64,000 nt of DNA, taken from an uncultured Anaerolineales bacterium. Lineage in GTDB: Bacteria; Chloroflexota; Anaerolineae; Anaerolineales; Villigracilaceae. Both the position numbers and the translations under genes were made by a program. The notes below the pieces were generated by a model, which had not been told where the DNA came from, did not search any database, and was given only the letters and a program-made list of their open reading frames with translations. This document shows, in pieces, positions 4,000 through 34,236 of this stretch. The stretch's first letter is position 1; each line of letters opens with the position of its first letter. The stretch covers positions 13,957 to 77,956 of the forward strand of contig CAISEG010000073.1 of the NCBI GenBank assembly GCA_903884265.1, in the 5' to 3' direction.

Positions 4000-6900
4000 C
4001 TAGGGATTAGGTATTTCCACCTTGAAATGCACCAGCGTCCCGTTGCCGGCATTGGTGACCCACAGACCGCCGGTGCCGTCGTAGGCAATGCCACTGGGCA
4101 GGAGCAACGTGCTGTTCGAGCAGCCATCCTGCACACGCACTGCTTGTCCGCTGGGGGAGAAGGTGATCAGGCGGCATAGTTCCGGGTCGGTGACGGTAAC
4201 GTTGCCAGTCCTGTCCCCGGCGATGAAGGGCTTGTTCTCCACAGATTGACCGTACCAGCCGTCCACCGGCCATTCGGCAATGGCGGTATACACCAGCCCG
4301 GCCGTATCAGGGGCAAAGACCTGTACGCGCTGGTTCCAGGTGTCAGTCACATAGACATTCCCGGTTGCATCCAGCGCCATCGCCACCGGTTCATCCAATT
4401 CACCGAGGGACAAACCCGGGGTACCGAACTGGGTGATGTATTTCCCGTCCGAATCAAAAACAACAATACGCTTGTTGCCGGTATCGGCCACATAGACACG
4501 GCCCTGGGCGTCCACAGCCAGGCCGCGCGGACCATAGAAGGCTTCGGGCGCATCGGAAGCCTGTCCAAAGAATCCCCACATGGTGACGAAAGTCCCTTCA
4601 GCGGTGAATTTCTCGATGCGATAGTTCCAGGTATCGGCTACGTATACACTGCCATCCGGTCCGACAGCGATGCCCCACGGTTCATTAAAGGTGCCTCCGG
4701 GAGCGGTGCCTTGCGATAGGTCCGCATGGGAACCCCAAACTTGGAGAACTGTTCCATCAGCACCCAGATGCTGGATGCGGTCATTCATCGAATCAGCCAC
4801 ATACAGGCTGCCATCCGAGGCTATAGCGATGCCGCGCGGTGACTGGAATTGCCCAGACCCTGTGCCGGCCGATCCCAATACAAGGTCCGGGGAGACCGGG
4901 GTTGTGATGGCTGCATACGGGTCAACGGGGGTCACCACCGGCTGAGCGCTGGCTCCATAAGGCCAGAGCAGGGAGGCGATATCCTTGCGGATGTAGTAAT
5001 GCATCCGGTCGGAGACGCCCCAATCGGTGATCGTATATGCCGTGCTGTTCCTTATGGCAGCCCACTGGGTGAAATCATCGTTGAGCCAGATCTGAAAGAC
5101 CGCACTGCGTACTTTTCCATCGGTGAAAAATGGCTTGATATGCGGCCAGACATACTCGAGGTAACCAAGCACATTCATTGCTGGAACGGTCTGGCCAGGG
5201 GCGGAGTACTGCGGCTGGAGAACGCTGGCACGTTCAGACTCGATCGTTCCCCATTTCAGGCTCCAGTAGTCCATGTTGGGCCACCACAGGCGCATGCCGG
5301 TGAACTCAAAGTAATCCTGCCGGACAACGGGTGTTATCTTGGCCAGGTTTTCATCCCCCACGGCAATCACCAGCGCCCGACGCGCGTCCACGGTGGGATT
5401 CACGTCGAAGTCAATCTTATTGGTGAAGCGACGCATGTACCACCAGTACGGGTAACGCACCTGGTTGTCATATGCTACAACGATATCGGTTGCAGTACCA
5501 GTAGTACGGATGGAAAGTTCCTCGATCTGGCCAAGAAGCGCCTTGGAATCCGGCGCCGCATGGGCATAGACCAGGGGCTCAGTGGCGTAATCATAGTTAA
5601 TGTAGGCGGCTCTGAAGGCATCCCTGCCAGTCTGCACGGCCAGAAGGCCGAAAAGAAGCAAAATGGCGAGGCGGGCAACATTCCGGAAGCTCCATCCAGC
5701 CACCTTGCCCCAAGGGACGGTTTCCACCAGCCACCCGACTGCCCAGGCTGTTGACAGGATCATCGGCAGGGCAATATGAATGGTCAGCCAAGGCATCTTT
5801 TCACCAGCATAAGTGAAAACGGCCAGGCTGCTCACCGACCAGAAGACCAGCAACGCTGCCACCGGCACTGGCTGAGCCGCTGCTGGACTTACGCTTGTCA
5901 ACATCACATCCGAAGGGTAAGAGTCGGTTTGAGGCCGGGTGAAGGGCCTGCCTGGCTGGCTCTGCCACAAACGCCCAAAGGTGGCAATCCCCGCCGCCGT
6001 CACCGTCCCGAGGGCCGATAGGAACTCGTACATCGGGACCATGAGCAGTACATAATAGTACAGGGGTTGGCCACCGCGGGCCACATCCTGCTGTTCCGTC
6101 CAATAACTGAGCGCCCCCACCAGTCCGCCGATAAGACCTTCGGGATTGGTGAAGAAGGTGCTGTAAAGCAAAATGAAGGGTACAAAGAATACCACGGCAT
6201 GGAACAGCCACTTGCGTCCGAACCACCAGAGTCCCAGGGCAATGGCGATAACAGCCAGCACCGTCGTCACCCCCGCCACTCGCAGCATGCCCGTCGCGGT
6301 GTAATCCAGGGCGGTGTAGCCCATCAATGAGATCGGGATGGCACTCAACAATGGCAGGACGAATGTGCCGAGAAGGATCAGCAAGTCGACTTCCCGTTCA
6401 GATTTAATGCCGGCCCAACCGAGACCTCGCACCAGTTCCACCCCCGACCAGACGAGAGAACCCGCTCCGCCCGCCGCCAGGATGCACACAACGATGATCA
6501 TTGTACGAACCGTCCCGGTGGCAGCTTCCGCCGCCGGTTTATGGGTAAGGTAGAACCCCGCTGCGCCAGCCAGGAACACCACGGTGAGCGACAAGCCAAG
6601 CAGGAAAGAGATCCTTCTCCGCGGCGACTTCCACGCGCGGCGCGAGACCCGGTCCACGAAATAAGCCGCCAGGAAGAGGAACTCCTCGGCAGCGAACATA
6701 TACGAGGTGGCCTTGTCAGTGAAGTGCAACGCGTTGACGGCAGTGAAAAGGAACAAAGCCCAGGTCTCACCGCGTTCAAGATATCGCAGGATGGCATATA
6801 TGGTCAGAATGCCCCACAGGACGATGTAAGACTCGTTCCGGGCGTAGCGTGCATAAAAGAGCATCAGTGGAGAAATGATGATCAGCCCACCCGCAACCAA

Positions 6901-7275
6901 CGCCCCGGTGCGGCCAAGGTAGCGCCGAAAGGCGAAGACAGCCACCAACATGGCGGCGATGCTGAGGACAGCCGCCGGGATGCGGGTGGTGAAATCGTTA
7001 TCGCCGAAGAGCGCATAGGAAAGGGCAATCATGTGGTACTGGAGCGGCCCGTGACTCATCGGGTCATACTTGTAGCCGTTACCAGAATACAGGCTGAAGG
7101 ATGGCACGACATGGTTGATCTCGTCGTGGCTCATGGCACGCGCCCCCAGATCATAAAAGCGTGAGAGGATTGCAGCTGCCAGCAACAGGACCACCAGCAA
7201 TGTTTCCACGTTCAAAGGGAACCAGCGCTTGAGTGGCGTATCGAGTATGGATGATTTTTCAGGAGCGGGTATCAT
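4000..7275 (-). CDS. GT-C-fold (PMT/ArnT-like) membrane glycosyltransferase fused to a C-terminal NHL-repeat beta-propeller
   Basis: 1091 aa. The N-terminal ~560 aa are polytopic with a first-loop DE motif (MSHDEINH) and the GDNDFTTRIPAAVLSIAAML block typical of GT39/GT83-type enzymes. The C-terminal ~290 aa carry repeated NHL blades (PRGIAIASDGSLYVADSMNDRIQHL, PWGIAVGPDGSVYVADTWNYRIEKF, PRGLAVDAQGRVYVADTGNKRIVVF, PVAMALDATGNVYVTDTWNQRVQVF). Confidence 0.75.
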   Translation of the reverse strand: MIPAPEKSSILDTPLKRWFPLNVETLLVVLLLAAAILSRFYDLGARAMSHDEINHVVPSFSLYSGNGYKYDPMSHGPLQYHMIALSYALFGDNDFTTRIPAAVLSIAAMLVAVFAFRRYLGRTGALVAGGLIIISPLMLFYARYARNESYIVLWGILTIYAILRYLERGETWALFLFTAVNALHFTDKATSYMFAAEEFLFLAAYFVDRVSRRAWKSPRRRISFLLGLSLTVVFLAGAAGFYLTHKPAAEAATGTVRTMIIVVCILAAGGAGSLVWSGVELVRGLGWAGIKSEREVDLLILLGTFVLPLLSAIPISLMGYTALDYTATGMLRVAGVTTVLAVIAIALGLWWFGRKWLFHAVVFFVPFILLYSTFFTNPEGLIGGLVGALSYWTEQQDVARGGQPLYYYVLLMVPMYEFLSALGTVTAAGIATFGRLWQSQPGRPFTRPQTDSYPSDVMLTSVSPAAAQPVPVAALLVFWSVSSLAVFTYAGEKMPWLTIHIALPMILSTAWAVGWLVETVPWGKVAGWSFRNVARLAILLLFGLLAVQTGRDAFRAAYINYDYATEPLVYAHAAPDSKALLGQIEELSIRTTGTATDIVVAYDNQVRYPYWWYMRRFTNKIDFDVNPTVDARRALVIAVGDENLAKITPVVRQDYFEFTGMRLWWPNMDYWSLKWGTIESERASVLQPQYSAPGQTVPAMNVLGYLEYVWPHIKPFFTDGKVRSAVFQIWLNDDFTQWAAIRNSTAYTITDWGVSDRMHYYIRKDIASLLWPYGASAQPVVTPVDPYAAITTPVSPDLVLGSAGTGSGQFQSPRGIAIASDGSLYVADSMNDRIQHLGADGTVLQVWGSHADLSQGTAPGGTFNEPWGIAVGPDGSVYVADTWNYRIEKFTAEGTFVTMWGFFGQASDAPEAFYGPRGLAVDAQGRVYVADTGNKRIVVFDSDGKYITQFGTPGLSLGELDEPVAMALDATGNVYVTDTWNQRVQVFAPDTAGLVYTAIAEWPVDGWYGQSVENKPFIAGDRTGNVTVTDPELCRLITFSPSGQAVRVQDGCSNSTLLLPSGIAYDGTGGLWVTNAGNGTLVHFKVEIPNP

Positions 7276-8404: not shown

Positions 8405-8434
8405 TTGTAATTGATACCTGTTCTGTGCTAAAAT
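8405..8434 (+). promoter_or_regulatory. candidate sigma-70 promoter of the dcw cluster (Pmra-like)
   Basis: TTGTAA (8405..8410), 18-nt spacer, then an extended -10 TGcTAAAAT (8426..8434). Confidence 0.5.
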
Positions 8435-8444
8435 GAGCCTGTCC

Positions 8445-8470
8445 GTGGGAGTAAGTGGGACGAAGTGGGA
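8445..8470 (+). promoter_or_regulatory. MraZ operator: three direct GTGGGA repeats with 10-bp periodicity
   Basis: GTGGGA at 8445..8450, 8455..8460 and 8465..8470, each separated by 4 nt. The site lies just downstream of the -10 element and 46 nt upstream of the mraZ ATG. It matches the TGGGN-N5 x3 operator architecture known for MraZ. Confidence 0.75.
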
Positions 8471-8515
8471 TGCCGGGTTTTCCGGCATTCTGGTTAAATA
8501 AAGGAATTAGAACTA

Positions 8516-8953
8516 ATGTTCCTAAACCAGTATCAGCACTCCTTCGATGATAAAGGCCGATTGACAATCCCGTCAAAACTTCGGGAGCTGCCAACCGAAG
8601 GTGCTTTTGTCGTCCAGGGGCTGGACCGCAACTTGATGGTACTGCCTCCTGCGGTTTTCGAGATCATATACAACCGCTTGATGGCGATGAGTATGACAGA
8701 CCCTAGCGCCCGTCTTCTGCGTCATATCATTCTCGGCAATGCTTTACAGGTTGTCCCGGATGGCGCCGGACGAATTCTAATCTCGCCGAACTTACGCGAG
8801 TTCGCCGGCTTACACAATGAGGTGGTCTTCGTGGGCCAGGGTGACTATTTTGAAATCTGGTCGCCTAAACTGTGGCAGGAACAGCAAGTGCAAATCAACG
8901 ATGCTGCAACCAATGCCCAACGTTTCGCCACGCTCGATCTCACCACCCGCTGA
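8516..8953 (+). CDS. mraZ: transcriptional regulator MraZ
   Basis: 145 aa. Two SpoVT/AbrB-like halves, each with a DxxGR motif (DDKGRLTIPSKLR and DGAGRILISPNLRE). First gene of the dcw cluster. Confidence 0.95.
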   Translation: MFLNQYQHSFDDKGRLTIPSKLRELPTEGAFVVQGLDRNLMVLPPAVFEIIYNRLMAMSMTDPSARLLRHIILGNALQVVPDGAGRILISPNLREFAGLHNEVVFVGQGDYFEIWSPKLWQEQQVQINDAATNAQRFATLDLTTR

Positions 8954-8954
8954 G

Positions 8955-9872
8955 ATGATCCCAGCGCACCAACCTGTACTTTACCAAGAAATTATACACG
9001 CTTTACGCCCGAAAAGAGGAGCACGCTACGTGGATGGAACACTAGGTGCAGGCGGCCATGCGGCCGGTCTGCTCGCCGGAAGTGACCCGGGAGGCCAGCT
9101 ACTCGGCATGGATGTGGACCCCCAGGCACTCGCCCTTGCCCACCTGAAACTCGCTCCCTTCGGGGAGCGCGCATGGTTAAAGAAGGCCCCCTACACCTCT
9201 CTACCCGACCAACTGGTTGAATTGGGGTGGGACTCGGTGGATGGAATCCTGCTCGACTTGGGAGCCTCTTCCATGCAGTTCGACACCCCGGAACGCGGTT
9301 TCTCTTTCTTGGTTGACGGCCCGCTGGACATGCGCTTCGACCCGTCGAACCCGCTCACCGCCGCCCAGATCGTCAACGAGTGGCCTGAGCAGGAATTGGC
9401 AGATATCCTCTTCCGTTACGGAGAAGAGCCCGCCTCCCGGCGCATTGCAAGAGCCATCATCGCCTCCCGGCCCGTGGGCGGGACCCAGCAACTGGCAGCT
9501 GTGGTCGAACGAGTCCAGCACCGACGCGGTCCCCACCACCCGGCCACGCAGACCTTCCAGGCCTTGCGTATCGCAGTAAATGCCGAACTGGAGTCTGTGG
9601 AAAAAATCCTACCAATGGCGGTTCAGGCTCTCGCTCCGGGTGGCAGGCTGGCAGTCATCTCGTTCCACTCACTGGAAGACCGGCTGGTTAAAGAATATTT
9701 CCGCCGGGAAAGCAAGGACTGCATATGTCCGCCTCGCCAACCGATCTGCACTTGCGGGCATAAAGCGAGTATCAAGGAAATATCCCGCCGGCCGATCACT
9801 CCGACGGAGACAGAAATTGACCAGAATTCCCGCGCACGCAGCGCCAAGTTACGTGTTGCTGAGAAATTATAA
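8955..9872 (+). CDS. rsmH: 16S rRNA (cytosine1402-N4)-methyltransferase RsmH
   Basis: HQPVLYQEI, GTLGAGGHA, LDLGASSMQFD and SFHSLEDRLVK. Start taken as the ATG at 8955, 1 nt after the mraZ stop. The ORF-track start at 8817 overlaps mraZ. Confidence 0.95.
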   Translation: MIPAHQPVLYQEIIHALRPKRGARYVDGTLGAGGHAAGLLAGSDPGGQLLGMDVDPQALALAHLKLAPFGERAWLKKAPYTSLPDQLVELGWDSVDGILLDLGASSMQFDTPERGFSFLVDGPLDMRFDPSNPLTAAQIVNEWPEQELADILFRYGEEPASRRIARAIIASRPVGGTQQLAAVVERVQHRRGPHHPATQTFQALRIAVNAELESVEKILPMAVQALAPGGRLAVISFHSLEDRLVKEYFRRESKDCICPPRQPICTCGHKASIKEISRRPITPTETEIDQNSRARSAKLRVAEKL

Positions 9873-9952
9873 GCAAGCCAATGGGTGTTGGCTCAGAACG
9901 GAGGTGCAGCGTCACCTAACACGACTAGAAGATATTCAACGGACAATAGAGA

Positions 9953-17207: not shown

Positions 17208-18216
17208 AGCCGAGGTTCTCTGGGTGGGTGGAGAAGGCGGCATGGAAGCCCGGTTGGTAGAGCGGGCCAATGTGTCGTTTAAGACCATCCCGGCTGCCGG
17301 AATCCACGGTGTGGGCCTGAAAACGTTACCCGGTAATGTGCTCAGGCTCGTGCGTGGTTTCTTTGCGGCGCGGCGCATCCTTCACGATTTTAAACCAGAC
17401 GTGATGTTCTTCACCGGTGGGTACGTAGCTGTCCCAATGGCGCTGGCCGGAATGAGAATCCCAACCGTCCTCTACATCCCCGACATTGAACCGGGATTGG
17501 CACTCAAGACCCTGGCCCTCTTCGCCGACAAGATTACCGTCACCGCCCAGGACTCATTCCGCTATTTCAACCACCAGGAGCGTCTTGTTTTGACCGGTTA
17601 CCCGACCCGTGCCAAGCTTGCGAAGTGGACGCGTTCTAATGCCCGCCAGACCCTGAGCCTGACCGACGAAGCTCCCGTCCTGCTGATCTATGGCGGGAGC
17701 AAGGGAGCACGCTCAATCAACGCTGCCGTGCTGGCAAACCTTTCCCCCCTGCTGGAACGCGCCCAAGTCATCCATATCACCGGTGAATTGGACTGGTCGA
17801 CCGTAGATGCGAGAGCGAAAGACCTCAACAAGACCCAGGCTGCCCGTTACCACGCCTTCCCATATCTGGATGAGGAAATGGGCGCTGCCCTGGCCGCGGC
17901 TGACCTGGCACTCTCACGTGCTGGGGCCTCCACTCTGGGCGAATACCCACTTTTCGGCCTGCCAGCCATTCTAGTGCCCTATCCATACTCGTGGCGCTAC
18001 CAGAAAGTGAACGCCGACACCCTCGTCCGCCAAGGGGCGGCAGTTTTACTTGAAGATGGTAAGTTATCCGACCAGCTCCTGCCAACCGTGGACAATTTAC
18101 TCAGTCAGCCTCAGAAAATGGCTTCCATGCGCGCCGCCATGCAGCGCCTTTCCCACCCTGAGGCTGCTGCAGAGATCAACCGCCAATTATTCGCTCTTTG
18201 CCAGGAGAGGAACTGA
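17128..18216 (+). CDS. murG: UDP-GlcNAc:lipid I N-acetylglucosaminyltransferase MurG
   Basis: LICAGGTGGGVYPALAV and IYGGSKGARSIN. Start proposed at the GTG at 17128, 9 nt after AAAGGA. The ORF-track TTG at 17029 would add a non-conserved 33-aa extension. Confidence 0.85.
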   Translation: MRLLICAGGTGGGVYPALAVLQTMQNKAEVLWVGGEGGMEARLVERANVSFKTIPAAGIHGVGLKTLPGNVLRLVRGFFAARRILHDFKPDVMFFTGGYVAVPMALAGMRIPTVLYIPDIEPGLALKTLALFADKITVTAQDSFRYFNHQERLVLTGYPTRAKLAKWTRSNARQTLSLTDEAPVLLIYGGSKGARSINAAVLANLSPLLERAQVIHITGELDWSTVDARAKDLNKTQAARYHAFPYLDEEMGAALAAADLALSRAGASTLGEYPLFGLPAILVPYPYSWRYQKVNADTLVRQGAAVLLEDGKLSDQLLPTVDNLLSQPQKMASMRAAMQRLSHPEAAAEINRQLFALCQERN

Positions 18217-18220
18217 GACC

Positions 18221-18751
18221 ATGATAAGCCTGACTTTCGTCTTCTGGATGTATGTGGTCCTGTTCGCAATCATCGGTGGCATGCGCGGTTGGGCCAAGGA
18301 AATAGTGGTCTCCTTCAGCGTTATCCTGGCACTTACTTTCACCACACTGCTTTCGAATTACGTCCCATTTATTCGCGACGTACTTCAAAAAGACAGCAAG
18401 GTACTTTACTTTTGGCTGCGCTCAATCATTCTGGGCCTCCTGGTTTTCTTTGGTTACCAGACACCCAACATATCCCGATTTGCGCCCAAAATGAACCGCG
18501 AGAAACTCCAGGATGTAATTCTGGGAGTTGTCATCGGTGCTTTGAACGGATATTTGATCGCCGGAACGATCTGGTTCTACCTGGCGAATGCCGGTTACCC
18601 GTTTACCAACTTCATTACCGCTCCTACAGGAGACCTCGCCAAGGTGGCTGAGGCCATGCTCCATTATATGCCACCCCAACTGCTTGGCATCCCCGGCATT
18701 TACTTTGCTGTCGTGGTTGCATTTATGTTCGTGATTGTGGTGTTCATCTAA
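18221..18751 (+). CDS. CvpA-family small membrane protein inserted in the dcw cluster
   Basis: 176 aa from the ATG at 18221 (GGAGAGG SD). Four TM helices. The N-terminus MISLTFVFWMYVVLFAIIGGMRGWAKEIVVSF resembles CvpA (colicin V production) proteins. Confidence 0.55.
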   Translation: MISLTFVFWMYVVLFAIIGGMRGWAKEIVVSFSVILALTFTTLLSNYVPFIRDVLQKDSKVLYFWLRSIILGLLVFFGYQTPNISRFAPKMNREKLQDVILGVVIGALNGYLIAGTIWFYLANAGYPFTNFITAPTGDLAKVAEAMLHYMPPQLLGIPGIYFAVVVAFMFVIVVFI

Positions 18752-18754
18752 AAT

Positions 18755-20140
18755 ATGACACGCATCCATCTGATCGGCATTGGTGGTACCGGACTCTCAG
18801 CCATCGCCCGTGTCCTGCTCGAAATGGGACACACGGTGAGCGGGTCTGACCGCGCCGAATCGCCATTCACGCGCGACCTGCAAGCTGCAGGGGTGGCGAT
18901 CAGTATCGGACACCGCCCGGAGATCGTTCGCGGCGCCGACCTTGTGGTTCGCTCGTCAGCCATCCCTGACGACAACCCCGAAGTGACTGCTGCGCGTGCC
19001 CTCAGAATCCCGGTCCTGAAGCGAGGCGACTTCCTCGGCCATCTGATGGATGGCAAGACCGGTATCGCCATAGCTGGAACGCATGGCAAGACCACCACCA
19101 CCTCGATGATTGCATGGATACTCTCAGCATTAGGCCAGGATCCAACTTTCATCGTCGGCGGTGTACTGGTAAACCTGGGTGTAAATGCTCGGGCCGGTAA
19201 AGGTAATGCCTTCGTCATTGAAGCCGACGAATACGACGGCATGTTCCTGGGTCTCAAACCAACCATCGAAGTGGTCACCAACATCGAGTACGACCATCCC
19301 GATTGCTATTCCACTCCGGCTGATTACCAGGCCGCCTTTGTGGAATTCATGTATCGTCTTCCGGCAGGAGGTTCCCTGGTGGCATGCGCCGAAGATCCCG
19401 GGGCGCGCGACCTGTTGGGCAAAGCCGAAAAACTTGGCAAAGCGGTCATCCCTTACGGTCTGCGCCCCACAACCGAGACCGGCCAGGCATTGGATGTTTA
19501 CGCCAACGTGCTGGCTCCCAATGAAAAAAGCGGCTTAACATTCAGCGCTTCTGTGCTTGGCAAATCAGCCATGGTTGAACTCCAAGTGCCGGGAAAGCAC
19601 AACGTCCGCAATGCCCTGGCGGCGCTGACGGTGGCGCAATTGCTTGGCTTGGATCTCGACACCGCAGCCCAGGCGCTGGGTGAGTTTACCGGCACCGGAC
19701 GCAGGTTCGAGGTGCGCGGCGAAGTGAATGGCATCTTGATTATTGACGACTATGCGCATCATCCAACTGAAATCATCGCAACACTCGCCGCTGCCCGTAC
19801 CCGCTATCCCTCTCGCCGCATCTGGGCTGTCTGGCAACCGCACACCTACTCGCGCACCCAGGCCTTGTTCAACCAGTTCGCGACCGCATTCACCGACGCT
19901 GACGAGGTGATCGTAACCGAAATCTATGCGGCCCGTGAGGCTAAACAAGATTACTCATCAAAACAGGTTGTGGAAGCCATGCCGCGCACGGCGCACTTTA
20001 TCGCCGGATTATCGGAAGCAAGCAATTATCTGGTCTCGAATTTACGCCCTGGGGATGCCCTGTTGGTACTCTCAGCCGGAGATGCTGACCAAATTAGTAC
20101 CGATGTGCTGACCCATTTAAAGGAGGCTCGTAATGGCTGA
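18755..20140 (+). CDS. murC: UDP-N-acetylmuramate--L-alanine ligase MurC
   Basis: IHLIGIGGTGLSAIARVL, GTHGKTTTTSM and DDYAHHPTE. Confidence 0.95.
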   Translation: MTRIHLIGIGGTGLSAIARVLLEMGHTVSGSDRAESPFTRDLQAAGVAISIGHRPEIVRGADLVVRSSAIPDDNPEVTAARALRIPVLKRGDFLGHLMDGKTGIAIAGTHGKTTTTSMIAWILSALGQDPTFIVGGVLVNLGVNARAGKGNAFVIEADEYDGMFLGLKPTIEVVTNIEYDHPDCYSTPADYQAAFVEFMYRLPAGGSLVACAEDPGARDLLGKAEKLGKAVIPYGLRPTTETGQALDVYANVLAPNEKSGLTFSASVLGKSAMVELQVPGKHNVRNALAALTVAQLLGLDLDTAAQALGEFTGTGRRFEVRGEVNGILIIDDYAHHPTEIIATLAAARTRYPSRRIWAVWQPHTYSRTQALFNQFATAFTDADEVIVTEIYAAREAKQDYSSKQVVEAMPRTAHFIAGLSEASNYLVSNLRPGDALLVLSAGDADQISTDVLTHLKEARNG

Positions 20141-26005: not shown

Positions 26006-26461
26006 TTATTCTGAATAGATCCGGATCGCGCTTAGGTCAAGGCTCAGTTCAAGGTGGGCTCCATACCGCATCCCTGGAATTTTTTCTGTGATCACTTCGA
26101 TTACTGACGGGTTCTGGAAATCGCGAATCTTAGTCTCTGGGTGGGGATAATAGACAAAACCTTCATACTCCTCGCCCTGAATCCTTACTCTACATGGGGA
26201 AAAAGAAAAATCCTCGGGCGGGTGCAGATCAGTCCAGGCGATTTGCTGGAAGGTAAAGTCCGGTTCGACCATTTCAAACCTCAACGGGGCGATGGAAATA
26301 TTCAGTGTACCGGTGAAGAATCGATCCAGGTCAAGGCCGCCTGCTTTGAAGAATGGTTTTTGCCGTTCCAGGCTGCTATACGGGTACTCTTTTGACGGTC
26401 CCGAGGCAACACGATGACCCTCAACAACTGTTCCGGGAACTTGGATATAATCCTTTTGCAT
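26006..26461 (-). CDS. hypothetical protein; weak resemblance to DUF120/CTP-dependent riboflavin kinase beta-barrel
   Basis: 151 aa. The pattern G-x-V-V-x-G ... F-x-G-T-L-N-I, then a C-terminal ...VIEVI... block, recalls archaeal RibK. This rests on recognition by eye only. Confidence 0.3.
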   Translation of the reverse strand: MQKDYIQVPGTVVEGHRVASGPSKEYPYSSLERQKPFFKAGGLDLDRFFTGTLNISIAPLRFEMVEPDFTFQQIAWTDLHPPEDFSFSPCRVRIQGEEYEGFVYYPHPETKIRDFQNPSVIEVITEKIPGMRYGAHLELSLDLSAIRIYSE

Positions 26462-26567: not shown

Positions 26568-27032
26568 CTAACCGTTCAATTCATCAATTAAGGCCAGCAT
26601 TTCGGCATTTTGTGGGATATCGGTCATGTCATGACCATAATGGACAAAACGGGCCGTCCCGGTTCGATCCACGAGCACCTGGGCGGGCATACGCCCAAAT
26701 TTGAACAGTTTGATCTCCTGCCCGTAGGTTTTTAATACAGAATGAATTGGGTCCGGCAGGCCAGTGAAGGGTAGGGAGTTATCACCAAAATAGCGTGCAA
26801 AAGCGGCAGCATCCTCTGGCCCAACAACCAGGATGACCGTGTTCCGATCTTCAAACTCCGTAAAATCTTGGCGCAACTGCGCCATGTGCGCGCGGCAGAA
26901 TGGTCAGATAAAACCGCGGTTGAAGACAAGTAATACATTCTTACCGCGGAAATCTGAAAGGCAGACTGGTTTGCCGGTATAGTCTGCTAGTTCAAAATTC
27001 GGTGCTGGGATGTTGATGGCTACTTTTGACAT
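26568..27032 (-). CDS. peroxiredoxin-like (PRX_like2/AhpC-TSA) thiol oxidoreductase; probable selenoprotein with in-frame UGA (U43)
   Basis: An ATG at 27032 with an AAGGAAA SD opens MSKVAINIPAPNFELADYTGKPVCLSDFRGKNVLLVFNRGFI-TGA(26906..26904)-PFCRAHMAQLRQDF... The frame is the same as ORF 26568..26885. The TGA replaces the first Cys of the family CxxC motif. Confidence 0.65.
26870..26883 (-). promoter_or_regulatory. candidate bacterial SECIS hairpin
   Basis: In the mRNA, GGCGC-AGUU-GCGCC starts 21 nt after the UGA, and the apical-loop G lies 27 nt after it. A flanking U-A pair extends the stem. Confidence 0.4.
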
Positions 27033-28047: not shown

Positions 28048-28806
28048 TTACTTGTGAGCTCTTACCCATCTTATAAGGCTATAGAGAAAAACAAGCGCCA
28101 CAAGCAGGCTTGTGATCAACGAGGCGATCCAGATGAGCGGTTCATTTGAGAACTTGTAGCCAATCCCTACTAGCGACCACAAGATGACCAGAATGTAAGC
28201 CACGTCACGGCGGTTCAGGCTCATCAGGGTTGAAATCACAAGGACAGCCACGAGGACTACCAGGAACCAGGTTTGCGCAGCGATACCAAAAACATTCCAT
28301 TTTAGATAGTCTAACACATCGGTCACATTGGCAACCGTGGCAACCGTGATCCAACCCAAGTAGACGCTGAAGGGGATGCGCACAGCCCAGTTCTCGCCGG
28401 TCGAAACTCTTATTCGCCCAATGCCGAGACGCTGATAAATGGCAATAAGCGAGCCAAGTAGGACCAGCATGGCAGCCAGCGTCCCGACGAATTGTTGGTA
28501 ATGCCACAGAAAGATCCATACGCTGTTCGCCAGTCCACCGAGAACGACCCACCAACCAGTGGACTGCAGGCGCGGGTTAATCTTCTGCGCAGGCAGGGCC
28601 TGGTAGATTGCGTAGGCGAGCAGGCCCATGTAGATCAGGCCCCAAATGGCAAAGACATATCCAGCCGGGACGAAATAAACGTGAAAATTATCCGAGATCC
28701 GGCCAGTATTCAGTCCGTTGATCGGCAGGGCATCGGCCAGGATGTTGATGGTGATTGTAGCCAGAATAACGACAACAACAGAAATCTGACGGAGGGCATT
28801 TTTCAT
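28048..28806 (-). CDS. Trp-rich polytopic membrane protein, TspO/MBR-related (long form)
   Basis: 252 aa, about 7 TM helices and many Trp residues. The N-terminal block ILADALPINGLNTGRISDNFHVYFVPAGYVFAIWGLIYMGLL resembles proteins annotated as tryptophan-rich sensory protein-like. Assigned from memory of the family. Confidence 0.45.
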   Translation of the reverse strand: MKNALRQISVVVVILATITINILADALPINGLNTGRISDNFHVYFVPAGYVFAIWGLIYMGLLAYAIYQALPAQKINPRLQSTGWWVVLGGLANSVWIFLWHYQQFVGTLAAMLVLLGSLIAIYQRLGIGRIRVSTGENWAVRIPFSVYLGWITVATVANVTDVLDYLKWNVFGIAAQTWFLVVLVAVLVISTLMSLNRRDVAYILVILWSLVGIGYKFSNEPLIWIASLITSLLVALVFLYSLIRWVRAHK

Positions 28807-33285: not shown

Positions 33286-34236
33286 ATGGATAAATCTGGT
33301 TCAGCTTCACCCCTCTATAACATAGGCGTAGTTACCCGCGTCACTGGAGTTCCAATCGCAACTCTGCATGCCTGGGAAAGGCGCTATGGATTCCCTGACG
33401 CTGCACGATCTGCTGGCGGGCACCGCCTGTATTCAGAAAAAGACATCGCCCGTTTGCGCTGGGTCAAATCCCAAGTGGATTCAGGACTGACTGTCAGCCG
33501 GGCGGTGATCGCGGCGCGCGCCCTTGAAGCGAATGGACGCCTGTTCCTACCCAATGAATCGGAGGCAAGTCAAAAGTCTCAATCCAGCCGCATCGCTTTC
33601 CCATCCCTGCGTGAATCACTGCTGGACGCCCTCTTCCACCACAACCTGCCGCGCGCTGACCAATTAATGGGAGAGATGCTGGCGTTTTACTCCCCTGAAG
33701 ACCTGACGTTGGAGGTCATAGGCCCGGCATTGAATGCCATCGGTGAAGCCTGGGAACAGGGGCACATCACCATTGCCACCGAGCACCTAGCAACCAATTA
33801 CCTGCGTCACCGCCTGTTGATGTGGATGGTGACCGGTCTAACCCCCAGATCTGGGGACTCGATTGTGCTTGCCTGCGCGCCAGGCGAACTGCACGAGGGG
33901 AGTCTCCTGATGCTGGGTGTGCTTTTACGCCGTAAGGGTTGGCCAGTGGCCTATCTCGGCCAGAACGTACCCTTCCACGACCTGGCAAAATTTATTGACG
34001 ATATTCATCCCAGTGCAGTTGTACTTGTAGCCATCTGCGAAGAACCGGCGCGGGCGCTCACAGATTGGCCGCATTGGATCAACCAAGTGGGCGGTCACCC
34101 TATCATCGGATTTGGCGGGCGGGCATTTATCGTCCACCCGGAGTTGCAGGGAATGGTGCCAGGTGTCTATCTAGGTACATCAATATCGGAAGGTATGACA
34201 AATTTGGTTTCACTACTTCAAAGGATTGAAAAATAA
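33286..34236 (+). CDS. litR: MerR-family, B12-binding light-responsive regulator (CarH/LitR class)
   Basis: N-terminal MerR HTH (YNIGVVTRVTGVPIATLHAWERRYGFP...GGHRLYSEKDI). W-x9-E-H motif (WEQGHITIATEH). A cobalamin-binding Rossmann module follows, with lower-ligand region ACAPGELHEGSLLMLGVLLRRKGWPVAYLGQNVP. Confidence 0.8.
   Translation: MDKSGSASPLYNIGVVTRVTGVPIATLHAWERRYGFPDAARSAGGHRLYSEKDIARLRWVKSQVDSGLTVSRAVIAARALEANGRLFLPNESEASQKSQSSRIAFPSLRESLLDALFHHNLPRADQLMGEMLAFYSPEDLTLEVIGPALNAIGEAWEQGHITIATEHLATNYLRHRLLMWMVTGLTPRSGDSIVLACAPGELHEGSLLMLGVLLRRKGWPVAYLGQNVPFHDLAKFIDDIHPSAVVLVAICEEPARALTDWPHWINQVGGHPIIGFGGRAFIVHPELQGMVPGVYLGTSISEGMTNLVSLLQRIEK

Follow-up and report, generated by a model that had tools for sequence, protein, structure and literature searches.

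A Peroxiredoxin-Like Gene from an Anaerolineales Bacterium Very Probably Encodes a UxxC Selenoprotein

One Gene Interrupted by a Single In-Frame TGA

The DNA examined herein is a 64,000-nucleotide stretch (the window) of contig CAISEG010000073.1 from an uncultured Anaerolineales bacterium. Its minus strand carries a gene for a peroxiredoxin-like (Prx-like) protein that is listed as two open reading frames (ORFs), one of 42 amino acids (26904..27032) and the other of 105 amino acids (26568..26885). An initial annotation, which noted that the ORF track gives only the C-terminal 105 amino acids of this protein, placed the true start at ATG 27032 behind a Shine–Dalgarno sequence, AAGGAAA. It further proposed that a TGA in the same frame, located where a CxxC-type motif would have its first Cys, encodes selenocysteine (Sec) and is followed by a hairpin of the selenocysteine insertion sequence (SECIS) type. 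The sequence agrees with this layout (Table 1). Translation from ATG 27032 to the TAG stop codon gives MSKVAINIPAPNFELADYTGKPVCLSDFRGKNVLLVFNRGFI*PFCRAHMAQLRQDF..., wherein the only internal stop (*) lies in the context ...LLVFNRGFI-*-PFCRAHMAQLRQD..., and some homologues have Cys at this position. Considering the comparisons described below, we conclude that what looks like a split redoxin gene is almost certainly a single gene, encoding a small thioredoxin-fold redox protein whose internal UGA is read as Sec.

Table 1. Features of the Prx-like gene and of other loci in the window
Feature	Coordinates	Strand	Remarks
Complete coding sequence (CDS), probable Prx-like selenoprotein	26568..27032	minus	154 codons plus TAG stop (26570..26568); predicted product MSKVAINIPAPNFELADYTGKPVCLSDFRGKNVLLVFNRGFI-U-PFCRAHMAQLRQDF...ELNG; basis: translation, Pfam, homologues, dN/dS
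Shine–Dalgarno-like AAGGAAA	27044..27038	minus	5 nt before ATG 27032; read from sequence
In-frame TGA, proposed Sec codon	26906..26904	minus	Residue 43, position 1 of U-P-F-C
Cys46 TGC codon	26895..26897	minus	Second residue of the UxxC redox motif; C46 invariant in alignment A2
SECIS-type hairpin UGGCGC-AGUU-GCGCCA	26884..26869	minus	6 bp, 4-nt loop; inside the CDS, 20 nt after UGA; GGCGC 26883..26879, AGUU 26878..26875, GCGCC 26874..26870
151-aa protein, just downstream of the Prx-like gene	26006-26461	minus	No Pfam or NCBIfam family
252-aa multi-pass membrane protein	28048-28806	minus	No Pfam or NCBIfam family
MerR-type regulator with B12-binding domains	33286-34236	plus	CarH-like light/B12 sensor architecture
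1091-aa protein	4000-7275	minus	PMT_2 glycosyltransferase domain and NHL repeats

When Cys is placed at residue 43, the window protein matches the Pfam families AhpC-TSA (PF00578; 73.7 bits, E = 1.7e-20, cut-off 26, residues 9–128) and Redoxin (59 bits, E = 6e-16, above the cut-off). Full-length homologues align to it with 55–82% identity across residues 1–154. At least 21 metagenome contigs, each assembled independently, show the same division into 42 and 105 amino acids, which excludes a sequencing error. Furthermore, the ratio of nonsynonymous to synonymous substitution rates (dN/dS) is ~0.12 for 11 ungapped codons 5′ of the TGA and 0.13–0.15 for codons +13 to +99 on its 3′ side. Among 89 distinct sequences, not a single stop occurs in the 34 codons upstream of the TGA, and an alignment of 19 sequences (alignment A2) reveals invariant residues at A10, P11, F13, L25, V36, and N38-R39-G40-F41. 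Because dN/dS values are equal on both sides and these upstream residues are invariant, the two halves represent one protein under purifying selection.

Relatives Carry either TGA or Cys at the Same Column

A genome scan using one genome per species recovered at least 551 relatives of this gene, of which the best 80 were examined. By label, these metagenome-assembled genomes (MAGs) comprise 62 Chloroflexota (including Anaerolineales, Anaerolineaceae, Ardenticatenaceae, Promineifilaceae, Leptofilum, Longilinea, and Desulfolinea), 17 Actinomycetota (including Thermoleophilia and Gaiellales), and 1 Leptospirales. TGA is present at the identical column in all 80 species-representative loci. It is also present in the metagenomic homologues L004, L007, L090, L092, and L095, down to 55% identity. 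The distant TGA homologues are marked by the peptide HMMQLH (L004, L092, and L095) or HMSQLR (L090).

True Cys forms of the protein also exist. The full-length homologue P0033 has a TGC codon (motif CPFC), and Cys likewise occupies the TGA column in L008 and L009 (TGC; CPFC), in P0141–P0149 (CPYC, CPFC, or CSHC), and in P0195, P0211, and P0224. These Cys-form homologues are single proteins of 150–165 amino acids. When 1.8 billion cluster representatives were searched with a profile, 35 of the best 150 matches were entries that start with MxQL. Because this start falls directly after the stop column, these entries are truncated TGA forms. The same search recovered full-length Cys forms at lower identity, with the motifs CPFC, CPYC, CSHC, and CPQC. 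The initial annotation had recommended aligning homologues at this point, and they indeed have TGA or Cys at exactly this column, with no scattered disruptions. As judged from the sequences, the occurrence of TGA in some homologues and Cys in others at one column is the classical signature of a Sec/Cys pair. The natural Cys forms in L008 (3926-4396) and L009 (2975-3445) retain an intact SECIS-type hairpin, and this Cys-form gene adjoins a reverse-transcriptase ORF (RVT_1) and a DSBA gene.

Protein searches returned two kinds of database entry for the interrupted form. The first comprises dozens of proteins of 105–106 amino acids that are 81–99% identical to the window protein and share a Met start after the stop. 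The second comprises full-length proteins of 153–165 amino acids (55–71% identical), nearly all of which have Trp at the stop column. The DNA fetched for L004 and L007 revealed a TGA codon behind this Trp, which gene callers had translated under genetic code 4 after switching codes on short contigs. Entries from public collections (P0001–P0120 and P0236) are either 105-aa truncations or full-length proteins with Trp at the catalytic position. One full-length entry, P0236, has Gly at this position, which may reflect code 25. NCBI nonredundant database entries are 105-aa proteins named “redoxin domain-containing protein,” and the name “peroxiredoxin Q/BCP” is also used.

These Trp entries, and the single entry with Gly, would be expected if UGA is translated as Trp (code 4), as Gly (code 25), or by a near-cognate tRNA, with no involvement of selenium, and the lack of Sec machinery in the window is compatible with such an explanation. 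However, the Trp residues correspond to TGA in the DNA and are products of gene callers, whereas the real full-length homologues have Cys, not Trp, in a CxxC redox motif. Moreover, TGA terminates 11 of the 37 recognizable genes in the window at their expected ends, including those for penicillin-binding protein, MurG, MurC, Ddl, ArgRS, and LexA. This excludes a genetic code that assigns UGA to an amino acid and indicates that the code is standard. Simple read-through also does not require a conserved stem-loop at the distance of a SECIS element, and one relative carries genes for tRNA-Sec and SelB near the gene (see below). We therefore regard an altered code or read-through without Sec as highly unlikely. 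The window contains 41 ORF pairs joined by TGA as read-through candidates, and all but the Prx-like gene are adjacent genes or antisense noise.

A Constrained Hairpin Follows the UGA

The hairpin predicted in the mRNA begins shortly after the UGA. The GGCGC arm starts at the 21st nucleotide after this codon, the G and U of the apical loop are nucleotides 27 and 28, and a U-A pair (26884/26869) lengthens the stem to 6 bp. Its minimum free energy (MFE) is −10.3 kcal/mol when the 16-nt hairpin is folded within the 18 nt at 26886..26869 (CAUGGCGCAGUUGCGCCA), and the z-score for this 18-nt hairpin by itself is −3.8. A published model for bacterial SECIS elements (bSECIS) specifies an apical loop of 3–9 nt, an upper stem of 4–16 bp, a distance of 16–37 nt between UGA and loop, and an MFE of −7.5 kcal/mol or lower, with a G within the first two loop positions that is usually followed by G or U (PMC13188914). 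The element in the window falls within every one of these limits, given its AGUU loop (G at position 2, then U), 6-bp stem, spacing of 25 nt, and MFE. The position and sequence of the hairpin are as first described, and its spacing is indeed typical of bacterial SECIS elements.

Comparison with relatives provides evidence that this structure is maintained. Alignment A3, in which 87 distinct sequences are anchored on the TGA, shows almost no variation within AUGGCGCAGUUGCG(C/U)CA, whereas the codons on either side of this stretch vary freely. The hairpin pairs are formed in 98.9% of cells, compared to 17–67% in controls in which the positions were slid, and RNAalifold finds the same helix. When RNAalifold was used to look for a larger lower stem, only a 3-bp helix was found (columns 10–12/18–20), and its columns are invariant and therefore uninformative. 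Eighteen sequences change a G-C pair to G-U through CGC/CGU alternation. In addition, the HMMQLH lineage forms GAUGC-AGUU-GCAUC, with two pairs altered on both sides, and the HMSQLR lineage forms UCGC-AGUU-GCGA, with one pair altered on both sides. These compensatory changes convert GC to AU or UA, and CG to UA.

Codon choice within the hairpin is similarly restricted. We calculated relative synonymous entropy for amino acid positions that are conserved in at least 85% of sequences. Outside the hairpin, conserved codons have values of 0.6–1.0, with Cys46 (0.36) as the sole other low value. In contrast, the hairpin codons GCG CAG UUG CGC/U are nearly frozen synonymously: Ala+8 has an entropy of 0.09 (GCG in 81 of 83 sequences), Gln+9 and Leu+10 have entropies of 0 (CAG and UUG, each in 88 of 88), and Arg+11 has an entropy of 0.33 and uses only CGC, CGU, or CGA. 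By comparison, UUG is used at other conserved Leu positions of these genes in only ~11–16% of cases. The MAQLR peptide encoded by the hairpin is not conserved in distant Cys-form homologues, which have HMALLRR, HAAQLRQ, HMIRLRR, or HMDQLQR instead. This fits a constraint on Sec forms that acts at the level of RNA rather than protein. The hairpin thus appears to be under strong RNA-level selection, with compensatory changes. A search of Rfam with a permissive E-value (positions 26780..26960) gave only a chance match to a miRNA; to our knowledge, Rfam has no general bacterial SECIS model.

The nearly invariant ATG of Met50 (26885) at the 5′ edge of the hairpin raises the possibility that the locus independently yields a peptide of 42 amino acids and a protein of 105 that starts at Met50, with the hairpin regulating initiation at this codon. 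However, no Shine–Dalgarno sequence precedes ATG 26885, and the 105-aa product would lack strands β1–β3 and the entire redox motif of the thioredoxin fold. Moreover, the two pieces never differ in frame, and what divides them is in every case a single TGA at the column homologous to Cys, and the Cys forms, as noted above, are single proteins. We judge this arrangement to be even less probable than translation under an altered code. The remaining alternative, in which a nonsense mutation inactivated a Cys-containing redoxin gene next to a coincidental hairpin, could draw on the truncated 105-aa protein reported by gene callers and by NCBI and on the unremarkable thermodynamic z-score of the hairpin context, but it has next to no chance of being correct given that all 80 species-level genomes, which represent three phyla, and at least 21 independent contigs of this species carry the same TGA, that the 42 upstream codons are under purifying selection (dN/dS 0.12) with no further stops or frameshifts, and that the synonymous sites of the hairpin are frozen. 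Indeed, the comparative data effectively refute a pseudogene, since the relatives lack disruptions at varying positions. The initial view that a chance nonsense mutation is improbable is therefore borne out by the uniform TGA, the synonymous constraint, and the compensatory changes.

Evidence Weighing Against Sec Insertion and the Location of Decoding Genes

Several observations weigh against the interpretation that the UGA directs Sec insertion. The hairpin is short and lies in a G+C-rich setting, where the z-scores of its context are only −0.1 (40 nt after the UGA) and −1.1 (76 nt), such that the argument rests on comparison with relatives. Variation in the stem is itself limited: double changes are seen in only 7 cells and reflect approximately two evolutionary events, and one stem pair is broken in each of L013 (10127-10186) and L046 (10130-10189). 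Furthermore, the Cys-form gene of L008 keeps the same hairpin, and hence the hairpin sequence alone is no proof of Sec insertion. Finally, no tRNA-Sec, selA, selB, or selD was found in the 64-kb window or in the ±10-kb flanks of the other 79 relatives. ARAGORN detected no tRNA in the window, Rfam at gathering scores detected no family there, and tblastn of the window with L060 SelB and Escherichia coli SelA and SelD as queries gave no match. Because the machinery is absent from the window and from these 79 flanks, Sec decoding by this organism is something we infer.

The data suggest that a recent Sec-to-Cys conversion would account for the hairpin in L008 and L009. In the two relatives with a broken pair, L013 has GCA in place of GCG, and L046 has GCC/UGC, with Arg+11 changed to Cys.

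One of the 80 relatives, L060 (an Actinomycetes MAG), carries Sec-decoding genes 7–10 kb from its TGA-containing orthologue. Its tRNA-Sec (17535..17631) was identified by ARAGORN and by Rfam (RF01852; 79.8 bits, gathering score 47). Adjoining this tRNA is a gene for SelB (17707..19926) with GTP_EFTU, Beta-barrel_SelB, and SelB-wing_3 domains, beyond which lies the C-terminus of SelA, and the Sec genes together span 17.5–20.4 kb. Sec decoding is a documented trait in both Chloroflexi and Actinobacteria (PMC1794560), and the selenoproteomes of some Chloroflexota are very large (PMC13326102). Considering the evidence on both sides, it is very probable that 27032..26568 contains a Sec-encoding UGA and an in-frame SECIS element within the gene for a Prx-like UxxC oxidoreductase of the AhpC/TSA superfamily.

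A UxxC Active Site in a Thioredoxin Fold

The nearest solved structures by sequence are 2ywn (a Sulfolobus Prx-like/BCP protein), 2l5o (a putative thioredoxin), and ResA. Cys46 of the window protein aligns with the peroxidatic Cys of the BCP-type PxxxTxxC motif and with the second Cys of the ResA CxxC motif. Sec43 aligns with the Thr of “FTQVC” in 2ywn and with the first Cys of “CPGC” in 2l5o. In these alignments, the Pro and Thr of the canonical peroxiredoxin motif PxxxT/SxxC are absent, and Arg39 (within the invariant NRGF) and Sec43 are found in their places; the conserved Arg114 is present. A thioredoxin-like UxxC (U43-P-F-C46) therefore replaces the TxxC or TxxU of peroxiredoxins. Because Sec is located at the position of the peroxiredoxin Thr and the first ResA Cys, the name “Prx-like thiol:disulfide oxidoreductase” fits better than “peroxiredoxin.” The peroxiredoxin-like identity that was originally assigned is thus correct with regard to the AhpC/TSA superfamily and its Prx-like members, but the protein is not a canonical peroxiredoxin.

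The structure modeled was that of P0033, the natural Cys-form homologue, rather than that of the window protein. Its AlphaFold model has a mean predicted local distance difference test (pLDDT) score of 91.5 and adopts a thioredoxin fold in which the motif lies at the start of a helix (45–56). This model is nearest to BCP-type peroxiredoxins (template modeling [TM] scores of 0.80–0.84), followed by ResA (TM 0.70–0.75). The N-terminus of the window protein, read by eye, has no hydrophobic segment, and the protein is therefore probably cytoplasmic.

Based on these features, we propose that the single gene yields a ~17-kDa thioredoxin-fold protein with an active site formed by Sec43-Pro-Phe-Cys46. 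During translation, the UGA would be decoded as Sec, with the hairpin serving as a bacterial SECIS element and bringing SelB-GTP-Sec-tRNA(Sec) to the ribosome. As in other members of the family, the selenolate of Sec43, positioned just before the N-terminus of helix α1, would attack a disulfide or peroxide. Cys46, one helical turn farther on, would then resolve the intermediate through a Sec43–Cys46 selenenylsulfide, which would in turn be reduced by a thiol reductant. The protein would thus act as a UxxC thiol/selenol oxidoreductase, presumably either a disulfide reductase or a peroxide-reducing enzyme.

A Subfamily of the Known Prx-Like UxxC Selenoproteins

Prx-like selenoproteins with a UxxC motif have been known since 2004 (Kryukov & Gladyshev), when the first surveys of prokaryotic selenoproteomes were made, and are listed as “Prx-like thiol:disulfide oxidoreductase, PF00578, UxxC/UxxU” (PMC1088965, PMC1794560, PMC13188914). 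The window protein resembles these proteins in its homology to PF00578, in having UxxC instead of the TxxU of Sec-peroxiredoxins, in its [LF][FV][YFN]RG..U-P-[FY]-C-R context, and in the location of its SECIS-type element within the CDS soon after the UGA. Published Sargasso Prx-like sequences share the local context LFYRGHW-U-PYCRR. Sec forms also outnumber Cys forms in both sets, with 22 Sec versus 4 Cys among Sargasso sequences (PMC1088965) and 80 of 80 Sec among the relatives examined here. In at least two published Sargasso Prx-like genes (PMC1088965 supplement, inspected by eye), Gln-Leu is encoded by CAGUUG shortly after the UGA, as in TGACCATTTTGTGAAAGGCAGTTGGCC. AGUU(G) may therefore be a loop that SECIS elements of the Prx-like superfamily use repeatedly.

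Distinctions from these published proteins are also evident. Between the window protein and one published Sargasso member (AACY01221093), BLASTP similarity (E = 1e-4) is confined to 21 active-site residues, which argues for a separate subfamily insofar as this one member is representative. The window subfamily has the signature FNRGF-x-U-PFC-xx-HMAQLRQD ... GRMPAQ ... HYGH-x-M-x-DIP, and its members come mainly from Anaerolineae-type Chloroflexota and Thermoleophilia-type Actinomycetota rather than from Deltaproteobacteria or marine plankton. The published Prx-like selenoprotein family is itself heterogeneous. From this comparison with a single published member, the window gene appears to belong to a distinct and widespread subfamily within the known Prx-like UxxC kind.

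Among other families, the SelL-related model (PRX_like2, NF040769) is the best NCBIfam match to the window protein (E = 6.5e-22), and the two share a Prx-like thioredoxin fold and a CxxC-type motif. However, the match reaches 78 bits where the curated cut-off is 120, and it covers only profile positions 2–99 of 173. Because even this best score is below its cut-off, no curated NCBIfam model captures the window subfamily. SelL, which in fish reportedly has a UxxU motif (Shchedrina et al. 2007), carries two Sec residues, whereas the window protein has one.

PrxU, the Sec-peroxiredoxin of Eubacterium acidaminophilum with a TxxU motif (Sohling et al. 2001, as cited in PMC13188914), belongs to the same superfamily, has the same fold, and likewise places Sec in the active-site turn before helix α1. 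In PrxU, however, Sec replaces the peroxidatic Cys of PxxxTxxC, whereas the window protein keeps C46 and has Sec three residues earlier, at the position of the Thr, and the Pro of PxxxT is Arg39. The NCBIfam model for PrxU (NF040737) gives only 18.8 bits against a cut-off of 270.

The nearest structures by sequence and fold are those of ResA/TlpA and BCP/PrxQ proteins (PDB 1st9, 2l5o, 3drn, 3hjp, and 2ywn), and the CxxC of ResA aligns with U43..C46 of the window protein. These proteins contain no selenium, and identity among the listed fold matches is only 18–29%. ResA/TlpA proteins have a membrane anchor or signal peptide, whereas none is seen by eye in the window protein, and the PxxxT of BCP is absent from it.

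Genomic Context

The window is ordinary chromosome. It includes a dcw cell-wall and division cluster ending in ftsA-ftsZ, followed by obg, argS, recG, lexA, and an ABC transporter. The Prx-like gene lies 33 nt after an alpha/beta-hydrolase gene within a same-strand run that abuts the end of the dcw cluster. This run encodes a short-chain dehydrogenase/reductase (SDR), a major facilitator superfamily (MFS) transporter, a hydrolase, an F420-type PPOX oxidoreductase, the 252-aa membrane protein, another hydrolase, the Prx-like protein, and the 151-aa protein. Scans for promoters and terminators around the Prx-like gene gave sites no more numerous than in shuffled sequence.

In at least 12 Anaerolineae genomes, a homologue of the 252-aa membrane protein (55–78% identity) is encoded directly upstream of the TGA-containing Prx-like gene, and this protein may be its functional partner. 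The 151-aa protein is found at the same position in six related genomes (L010, L012–L015, and L021), with 59–73% identity. In L060, a catalase gene lies immediately upstream of the Prx-like gene and consists of two overlapping ORFs (8427-9362 and 9232-9948), a split that is probably due to an assembly frameshift in this MAG. Two other window genes encode proteins with recognizable domain architectures (Table 1).

Implications

The immediate consequence of this analysis is a correction of annotation. Public records contain either a 105-aa fragment or a full-length protein whose catalytic residue is wrongly given as Trp, and selenoprotein genes of this type are routinely cut in two by annotation pipelines. 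The hairpin is a clean and highly conserved example of a probable minimal bacterial SECIS element, and could seed an annotation model specific to this family. Although the gene leaves known selenoprotein biology unchanged, its status as a UxxC selenoprotein would imply that this Anaerolineales-type organism decodes Sec, and would add a redox enzyme to its repertoire for oxidative stress or thiol homeostasis.

We can also entertain, although we consider it somewhat doubtful, a broader proposal in which these proteins form an unmodeled subfamily (FNRGF-x-U-PFC ... HMAQLRQD) of soil, sediment, and wastewater Anaerolineae and Thermoleophilia, wherein Sec is near-universal, Cys is rare, and a near-invariant minimal SECIS element (GGCGC-AGUU-GCGCC) is shared across three phyla. 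If true, the gene would serve as an easily read genomic indicator of Sec decoding in these poorly cultured lineages. Its distribution would then also suggest horizontal spread of a gene with a built-in SECIS element, and a possible functional pairing with the 252-aa membrane protein encoded upstream.

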